Origin: Escherichia coli
Lineage (GTDB): Bacteria > Pseudomonadota > Gammaproteobacteria > Enterobacterales > Enterobacteriaceae
NCBI RefSeq assembly: GCF_045037415.1
Contig: NZ_CP173438.1
Length of the DNA stretch: 64,000 bases
Strand: one strand, 5' to 3'
Positions within the stretch are counted from its first letter, which is position 1. Every line of letters begins with the position of its first letter. This document shows, piece by piece, positions 15,001 through 18,000 of this stretch. A program made the position numbers.

Positions 15001-18000
15001 CAGCGACTGCGCGTCGTTGCCGAGATGTTGTTTTACCTCAATACGATTAAGCGGATTATGCTCATCCTCTTTTTTTACCTCCGGCAAAGAGAACACGCGG
15101 GCAACCAATAGCTTGTGTTGCTCAAGATGAGCGGCAAATGCAGCCAGCTCTTGTTCCATCTGGCGAAAAGTAGTGTTGAGTCGGTCTACGAGATCGTAAC
15201 GCGCCATAATATTAATCACTTTAGTTACAACATCCTTATTTTATAGCACAGTGGTGGTGACTTGACCACCGTGCGCATAGTGTCAGGCAGAGGTAAATTG
15301 CGGGATGTTATGCCATAACGGCCAGCTGAACGAGAAGCGGGCACCCCCCAGTTCGCTGGTGTCACAATTAACCGTACCGCCCATTGCCAGTGCTATAGAG
15401 TGGACAATGGCCAGCCCCAGCCCGCAGCCGCCGGTTGAGCGATCCCGGCTGGGATCGAGGCGAACAAAAGGTTCAAAGATATGTTCGCGGTTTTCTGGGG
15501 CAATCCCTGGGCCATCATCCTCAACAATTAATGTCGCTCTATTCCCCGACAGTAGCAGGCTGGTTTCAACCGTTGAGTGACAGTAGCGCAGGGCGTTATT
15601 GAGCAAATTATCCAGCACGCGCTCCATTAAGCGCATATCCAACGCAGCATAATGGCCTTGCGCGAGCGTTTTTATCCGTACCGTTTTATCGGGCGTTACT
15701 GCCTGAATATCTGCCAGATGCGTTGACAGCCACAACGGCAGGTCTGGTTCGCTAAGATGAAGCTCATTTTGTGGGCGATCGAGCCGGGCATAAGTCAGCA
15801 GCTCTTCAATTAAAGCTTCAAGTTGACTGATATCGCGATTCAACGCCTGGGATTCGGCGGCGCTCAGGTTATCGCTCATCTCCAGTCGATAACGCAGGCG
15901 CACTAACGGTGTTCGCAGTTCGTGAGCGATACCGTCAATAAGCTGTTTTTTGCTGGCAATCAAGGCGTTGATATTGTCCGCCATCTGGTTAAATGCGACG
16001 CCAAGTCGTTCAAAGCTCGAACCTTCATCAAAGTGGATACGCTCACTGAGATGCCCATCGCCAAATCGTTGCGCCGCTGCTTCCAGTTTTAACATATCCT
16101 GCCAGTGCGGACGCATCCAGATAAACACCGGAAAGGCGAGGGAAATGGCAATAAAAGCGATCAGGGCGATATCCAGCAATCGCATCTGATGGAGGTAATA
16201 AAGATAAGGAACAGGACCAACTGCCAGCACGTAGTGGCTGCGTGGGATACGTTGCAAAAAAGTGTACTGATCGTCCAGAGCGACAATTTCGCCGCCACGC
16301 AGCCGCTGAGTAAATATCATCAAGATGATATTTACTCAGCGGCTCGACACGCAGATCGAAAGAGAGATTTAAATCCATCTCTTTCAGCGTCTTACCCCAG
16401 TCGTGTGGGGGGATCTCACGCAATTCGCTGCGCATCAGATACAGCGAACTGTTCATCAAATCATCCAGCGACTGTTTGCCTGCGCGTTCGGCGGTAAATT
16501 TGTACACCAGCCCGACCAGCAGAGACATCACAAGGAAGCAGACAAACAATAACAGGTAAAACTGGATAAACAGTTTTTTCATCGCTTATTCCCACGCATG
16601 AGGCGCAAAAAGATAGCCTTTGTTACGCACGGTTTTAATACGATAAGGTTCTGCGGCGTTATCGAGCAGTTTTTTTCTTAACCGCGAAATAGCCACGTCC
16701 ACGCTACGATCCAGCCCGTCATAACTGACGCCGCGTAAATTTTTCAGCAATGCATCGCGGTCCATGATTTGCCCGGCATGGGTAGCTAATTCCCACAATA
16801 ATTCGAAATCAGCTGTCGAGAGCGAGATTTCAGTGTTAGCCAGGGAGACTACGCGGTTGATGGGATCGATGGTCAACGTGCCGAAATGCAGGGCTTTGTA
16901 GGGAGTCAGAGACGTTTCCTGAATACCTTTGGTCACTGTGGCTTGCTCATTCTGACGCAAATGCAAGCGTAAACGCGCTAACAAAACAGCAGGGGGCGTC
17001 GTTTTGAGAATATAGTCGCAGGCGCCCATTTCCAGTGCCAGGATGTGGTTCATATCGCTATCGAGAGAGGTTAGAAGAACAATCGGTCCGGACCACTTTG
17101 CGCGTAAATCACGACAAATGGTCATGCCGTCCTTGCCTGGTAGCATGATGTCGAGTAACACCAAATCCGGATTTTCTCGCAGAATAGTTTCTTCGGCCCG
17201 GTCGCCGCGCGGCTCTACGGTAACCTGCATATCATGTTTTGCCAGGTATGCGGCAATCAGTGCACCGACTTCCGCATCATCTTCCACAAATACGATAGTG
17301 TTCATAACATTCACGGTAGATATAAAAACGTCACAATACACCGCACTGTTTTTACTTACTATCAATCGTTTCTAAACAAGGTTTCATCAGGTATTCTACT
17401 GATGACTTGTTATGGAAGTGTTAAGGTAAAAAGATGGGGCTGGTAATCAAAGCCGCGCTCGGTGCGCTGGTAGTGCTGTTGATTGGTGTTTTAGCAAAAA
17501 CGAAAAATTATTATATCGCCGGGCTGATTCCACTTTTCCCGACCTTTGCGCTTATCGCGCATTATATTGTTGCCAGCGAACGCGGCATTGAAGCCTTACG
17601 CGCAACCATCATTTTTAGTATGTGGTCGATTATTCCCTATTTTGTTTACCTGGCGTCGCTATGGTATTTCACCGGAATGATGCGCTTGCCCGCTGCTTTT
17701 GTTGGCTCTGTTGCGTGCTGGGGAATAAGCGCATGGGTGTTGATTATATGCTGGATTAAGCTGCATTAACGCAGATGACGACCGCCATCAAGTGGGAGAC
17801 TGCGTCCGGTGACAAAGCAGCTGGTAAGTAAGTAATCGACCAGGTCGATCACTTCTTTCTCGCCAGGCGCGGTTTTCATCAGTGATTTATTCAGCGCCTG
17901 TTGTCGATATTCGGCATCATCATGTTCATTAAACAGGATCAGCGATGGCGCAATAGAATTCACTTTCACTTCCGGTGCCAGCTTGCGGGCAAACGAGCGG

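Follow-up and report, generated by a model that had tools for sequence, protein, structure and literature searches.

The question raised by this locus is whether the Ter-like sequence in front of tus is the chromosomal replication terminator TerB in its classical place, and whether a base change within it, at position 7, sets it apart from the TerB sites of other Escherichia coli. The whole stretch of DNA that was analysed, 64,000 nucleotides (64 kb) in length, is referred to as the window. An earlier note, drawn up from the sequence alone, had described a Ter-like 23 bp located 11 bp upstream of the tus start codon. Using K-12 TerB (AATAAGTATGTTGTAACTAAAGT) as query and allowing up to 3 mismatches, we obtained a single minus-strand match in the 64-kb window, at 15218-15240 and with 1 mismatch, and at the same threshold none of 100 dinucleotide-preserving shuffles contained a match. 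We assign this feature (AATAAGGATGTTGTAACTAAAGT; 15218..15240, minus strand) as TerB, a replication terminator of 23 bp that is bound by Tus; its position 1 falls on 15240 and its position 23 on 15218. For the 14-nt Ter core consensus (GNRNGTTGTAACKA) an exact copy was found at 15222-15235, and no second core was found in the 64-kb window with 1 mismatch allowed. Alignment to the Ter consensus, by which the earlier note proposed to check its reading, therefore gave an exact core match together with 22/23 bases shared with TerB. Ten nucleotides (15208-15217) lie between Ter position 23 and the tus ATG (15207-15205), which puts position 23 at -11 from the A of the ATG, just as had been claimed, and the interval 15205-15245 given for the feature spans both the ATG and the site. 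In a minus-strand reading of 14900-16400 the Ter/tus leader appears as TGGTCAAGTCACCACCACTGTGCTATAAAATAAGGATGTTGTAACTAAAGTGATTAATATTATGGCGCGT.

Alignment with MG1655 placed the sole difference inside the site at Ter position 7 (15234, minus strand), where G is found here and T in K-12 TerB, in agreement with the substitution given in the note; overall 22/23 bases are identical. The G.C pair at the neighbouring Ter position 6 (15235, C on the plus strand of the window) is intact, and G6 was kept in 81/81 related sites. The description of the substitution as a flanking change that leaves the core intact holds for G6 and for positions 8-19, but position 7 itself is usually counted within the core numbering. 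Judged by these sequence features, G6 and positions 8-19, the site is a member of the Tus-dependent Ter sites of the TerA-J type, and the sequence evidence supports its identification as TerB in the classical spot before tus.

The adjoining tus gene, encoding the replication terminus site-binding protein of 309 aa, is intact and extends over 14278..15207 on the minus strand, according to its translation and to the SK1144 RefSeq annotation of the identical gene. The predicted Tus (309 aa) is 98% identical to K-12 Tus and matched both the Pfam profile PF05472 'Ter' (E=1e-136) and the Tus structures PDB 1ECR/2I06 (E~1e-205). Five substitutions distinguish it from K-12 Tus (I23A, L105F, T136S, A137V and L147F), and the residues E49, I79, F140, H144, G149 and R198, which we take to be those of the C6 pocket and the main contacts, are unchanged. 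L147F sits between H144 and G149, presumably in the region of the C6-binding pocket. Co-variation of the Tus substitutions, notably L147F, with G at position 7 (G7) was considered and dropped, since BL21 and O157:H7 have G7 on other backgrounds. As predicted from its reading frame, an intact cognate Tus is encoded alongside the Ter site.

The site also overlaps the presumptive control signals of tus. By eye we recognised a putative extended -10 element, TGcTATAAA (15240..15248, minus strand), in which the hexamer TATAAA covers 15245-15240 and its last base coincides with Ter position 1. A putative -35 element, TGGTCA (15263..15268, minus strand), agrees with TTGACA at 4/6 positions and is followed, after 17 nt, by the -10 hexamer; this candidate showed weak conservation across species. 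If TATAAA (15245-15240) is the -10 element, the transcription start would be predicted at about Ter positions 7-8. A Shine-Dalgarno-like stretch, TAAAGTGAT (15215..15223, minus strand), extends into the Ter site (positions 18-23) and stands 7 nt ahead of the ATG, where it may act as the ribosome-binding site; in K-12 this stretch reads TAAAGTGGT. A sigma-70 consensus scan of 15100-15400 returned no promoter, because its rule demands T at hexamer position 6 and the candidate ends in A (TATAAA). In ~58% of the loci from 80 species, a hexamer with at least 5/6 agreement to TATAAT has its first base 3-8 nt ahead of Ter position 1, which lends support to the promoter assignment but does not settle it. 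Downstream of the Ter site, G was found at position +24 in 61 and at +25 in 55 of the 81 species. The published K-12 picture places terB within or overlapping the tus promoter (PMC8347550) and describes autoregulation of Tus through TerB (PMC8707476, PMC12809603; PMC8347550 for the promoter position). The site described here is likewise directly upstream of tus and on the tus coding strand, as its coordinates indicate.

Two further differences from K-12 were observed in the leader. The promoter spacer carries one change (CCACCACT vs CCACGACT), and at 15216, the second base downstream of the Ter site and within the Shine-Dalgarno-like stretch, G is replaced by A. The A at 15216 is apparently confined to the ~558 genomes with an exact match to the 67-mer. 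In the B2-like strain E166, G7 is combined with G at the base equivalent to 15216.

The chromosomal surroundings were equally those of TerB. The window aligns end to end with E. coli SK1144 (NZ_AP018784.2, 2398315-2462317) at 99.98% identity, the alignment containing 10 substituted positions and 3 gap columns, and the strain presumably belongs to a B2/ST131-like lineage. The gene order, malI-hdhA-uidRABC-ydgA-manA-fumA-fumC-tus-rstB-rstA-ydgC-folM...marRAB...sad-glsB-yneG, corresponds to that of K-12 read in the opposite direction, and the syntenic context rstA-rstB-TerB-tus-fumC is, going by this gene order, that of TerB. Many E. coli chromosomes carry the 1 kb around the Ter site with 100% identity, and 5423/5426 complete genomes contain it. 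One of the 5427 matching places of the tus-rstB kilobase was on a record typed as plasmid, and three genomes were without the region.

With respect to the terminus itself, the claim that the window lies at the replication terminus could be upheld in part. GC skew on the plus strand was positive overall, in 14/15 overlapping 8-kb bins, with one marginally negative bin (-0.004), and a skew switch, i.e. a change of sign, was not found within the 64-kb window; nor was dif. In SK1144, TerC is found ~3.5 kb and dif ~7.3 kb past the point where the window ends on the right; measured in the same direction from TerB, the distances are 52 and 56 kb, respectively. TerC (ATATAGAATGTTGTAACTAATAT, at 3470-3492 of sequence L093) has the same orientation as TerB, dif lies at 7282-7309 of the same sequence, and beyond dif the GC skew of SK1144 fades to about zero or becomes negative. 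As dif, a second Ter site and a skew switch are all missing from the window, the placement holds only regionally: the window belongs to the terminus region, between TerB and TerC, and does not take in the point of fork fusion. The positive skew indicates that the plus strand would be the leading strand for a fork moving from left to right, so that the normal fork should meet position 23, the permissive face, first. Read in this way from the skew, the site is oriented as in a fork trap, permissive for forks coming from oriC and blocking for those coming from the terminus. This is the logic described for terB (PMC13220808, PMC10331603). In wild-type cells both terC and terB arrest forks (PMC10331603, PMC13220808); for the clockwise fork TerB backs up TerC as a second barrier, and it is not where forks usually fuse (PMC13220808).

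We examined whether the arrangement is shared across the Enterobacteriaceae by a Tus-protein scan of species-representative genomes, which yielded 80 loci (81 sequences including the window) from genera that include Escherichia, Citrobacter, Salmonella, Enterobacter, Klebsiella, Kosakonia and Kluyvera. In 80/80 loci one match to the Ter core, and never more, was found within 150 nt upstream of tus, always in the same orientation. The gap between Ter site and start codon was 6-10 nt in 74/80 loci, 18 nt in five of Kluyvera type and 27 nt in Intestinirhabdus. The two longer gaps, in Kluyvera (L066, L075, L076, L087 and L089) and in Intestinirhabdus (L031), rest on start codons defined by tblastn, and they could be due either to a genuinely extended leader or to a wrongly placed start codon. 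Ter positions 5, 6 and 8-19 were invariant in 81/81 tus-upstream sites. Position 7 was T in 74 species, C in 2, and G in 4 as well as in the window, the G7 carriers outside the window being three Escherichia lineages and one Pluralibacter. From the occurrence of T at position 7 (T7) in 74/80 species we conclude that T7 is ancestral and that G7 arose within Escherichia.

Within E. coli, position 7 presented a different frequency pattern. Four main alleles were defined from a ten-strain alignment and counted by exact 30-mer searches, one per allele, among 5,426 complete E. coli genomes. A megablast search with a 67-nt query had found 1505 genomes, as closely spaced SNPs break its 28-nt word, and a word-11 search and the exact 30-mers were used instead; the word-11 search recovered the TerB locus in 5423/5426 complete genomes. 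The allele of this window (AATAAGG...) was present in 1371 genomes and a second G7 allele (ATTAAGG...), that of O157:H7 and BL21, in 1258. The K-12 allele with T7 (AATAAGT...) was present in 2357 genomes, and a T7 allele with a 1-bp insertion (ATAAAGT...) in 265. G7 was thus found in 2629 and T7 in 2622 genomes (~48% each), and together they account for 97% of the 5,426. In the ten-strain alignment the distribution of the alleles tracked the strain lineages. In the TerC site of SK1144 (ATATAGAATGTTGTAACTAATAT) position 7 is A. K-12 TerC, like K-12 TerG, has G at position 7, so that position 7 is polymorphic at TerC too. G7 in TerB is a common natural variant and not a peculiarity of this strain. 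The earlier statement that the site differs from TerB is accordingly valid with respect to the K-12 allele, but in E. coli position 7 exists in two states of about equal frequency, of which G7 is one. In line with this, position 7 has been reported to vary among E. coli phylogroups and to be without a base-specific Tus contact (Goodall et al. 2021, PMC8347550).

Taken together, we consider it highly probable that the site is a chromosomal TerB in the tus control region, serving both as a one-way fork barrier and as the tus operator, and that G7 is tolerated in it. What we observed here are the site, its spacing and orientation, the intact tus gene, the conservation across species and the allele frequencies; Tus binding, fork arrest, autoregulation and the tolerance at position 7 are expected by analogy and carried over from the K-12 literature. 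In the proposed mechanism a Tus monomer would bind the 23-bp site. Because the Tus-Ter complex is asymmetric, it could fill two roles, that of a fork barrier and that of an operator. A fork arriving from the TerC/dif side, moving from right to left, would meet the face with position 1 and G.C6 and be arrested; the normal fork, moving from left to right, would meet the position-23 face and pass. In K-12, C6 flips into a pocket of Tus as a 'lock' upon unwinding from the non-permissive side, and G6/C6 is critical (PMC8347550, PMC10331603). With regard to the operator role, the site has its first position on the final base of the probable -10 element, would cover the predicted transcription start and overlaps the probable ribosome-binding site. 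Owing to this overlap, bound Tus should shut off its own synthesis, and the Tus level would stay low. G7 falls on a base that is probably unread by Tus, and both roles would be expected to remain intact.

A site that merely resembles Ter by chance, or that has decayed and lost its function, was also considered and rejected. Short motifs do recur, and this general caution is all that speaks for such a site. Against it stand the 22/23 match, the 0/100 shuffles and the presence of the same site, at the same position and in the same orientation, in 80/80 species and in 5423/5426 E. coli genomes, so that we regard this explanation as practically negligible. It appears slightly less far-fetched, yet still very improbable, that G7 weakens TerB, making it less effective at stopping forks and less tight as an operator, with Tus above the K-12 level. 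Position 7 adjoins the critical G.C6 pair, and T7, being found in 74/80 other species, is ancestral and strongly preferred outside Escherichia; both would be compatible with a cost of G7. However, ~48% of complete E. coli genomes have G7, O157:H7 and BL21 included, and at TerC position 7 is not T either, being A in SK1144 and, in K-12, G in TerC as well as in TerG.

The exchange between T7 and G7 could also act on transcription and not on Tus binding, by shifting the tus start or by changing the basal promoter activity, and thereby reset the Tus dosage. Position 7 corresponds to about -1/+1 of the predicted tus promoter, with +1 at Ter positions 7-8, and the nearly equal frequencies of T7 and G7 would be compatible with neutrality as well as with lineage-specific tuning. 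The promoter elements are putative, however, as the sigma-70 scan of 15100-15400 found none, and T7 and G7 follow the strain lineages, as would be expected from neutral drift. We therefore regard an action on transcription as unlikely. A broader proposal, that the T7/G7 dimorphism is non-neutral and that the two alleles could set a lineage-specific Tus dosage or lock kinetics, seems to us quite improbable; its grounds are the location of position 7 at about -1/+1 of the predicted tus promoter and beside the locking C6. G7 occurs in O157:H7 and BL21 genomes, and presumably also in genomes of the B2/ST131-like lineage, and T7 occurs in K-12-like genomes. An effect of T7/G7 on Tus dosage is unlikely.

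The tolerated-G7 TerB favoured here can be compared with several known systems. It shares with K-12 TerB-tus the locus itself, with rstB upstream and fumC downstream, the 10-nt spacing, the orientation, 22/23 bases and a Tus of 98% identity; it differs from it by G7, the G->A exchange two bases 3' of the site, the one spacer change and the five Tus substitutions. A further parallel, by analogy only, is offered by Bacillus subtilis, whose terminator protein RTP reportedly autoregulates its own gene, rtp, a finding attributed to Ahn et al. 1993; the fold and the site architecture of RTP are unrelated to those of Tus-Ter. The K-12 system goes back to Hill 1989, Natarajan 1991 and Roecklein 1991, 1992, as cited in PMC8347550 and PMC8707476. 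With E. coli TerC, which is 52 kb to the right in SK1144, the site has the core, the orientation and a variable position 7 in common. Unlike TerB, TerC has no association with a promoter or with tus, and the clockwise fork meets it before TerB, which serves as back-up (PMC13220808). In the type I fork traps of Edwardsiella, Dickeya and Proteus (Toft et al. 2021, PMC8707476) the Ter site adjacent to tus is barrier and operator as well. There the tus-adjacent Ter site is the innermost one, whereas E. coli (type II) has the extra TerC inside.

Two frameshifted genes were observed in the vicinity. The gene rstB (15283-16582, minus strand) is frameshifted at about codon 91 of 433 by a clustered change at 16306-16311 relative to SK1144, consisting of two substitutions and two 1-bp deletions with a net loss of 2 bp. 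An imperfect inverted repeat, with arms of 10 nt in SK1144, has thereby become a perfect palindrome, whose arms (16301-16321 and 16324-16344) are 21 nt long and enclose a 2-nt spacer. Each of the four changes brings the left arm into full complementarity with the right arm, which itself is unaltered. Such a pattern is typical of a quasipalindrome template-switch mutation, but it could also stem from an assembly artefact. The palindromic version was not found among the 5,426 complete E. coli genomes, where the best identity was 95.2%. The palindrome lies ~1.07 kb from TerB, and a link to fork stalling would be pure speculation. The second gene, uidB (5384-6756, plus strand), encoding a glucuronide transporter, has a 1-bp deletion at about 5843 relative to SK1144; the resulting frameshift leaves the ORFs 5384-5854 and 5746-6756. 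The adjoining uidC is annotated as frameshifted in SK1144.

The TerB-tus arrangement has been textbook knowledge since about 1989-1992, and the autoregulatory terminator found here is this already known feature in a common allelic form. The allele census is a small quantitative addition to it and no discovery. For the present DNA, the value of TerB is that of a landmark, as it marks the window as chromosome of the E. coli terminus region and fixes its orientation relative to replication.
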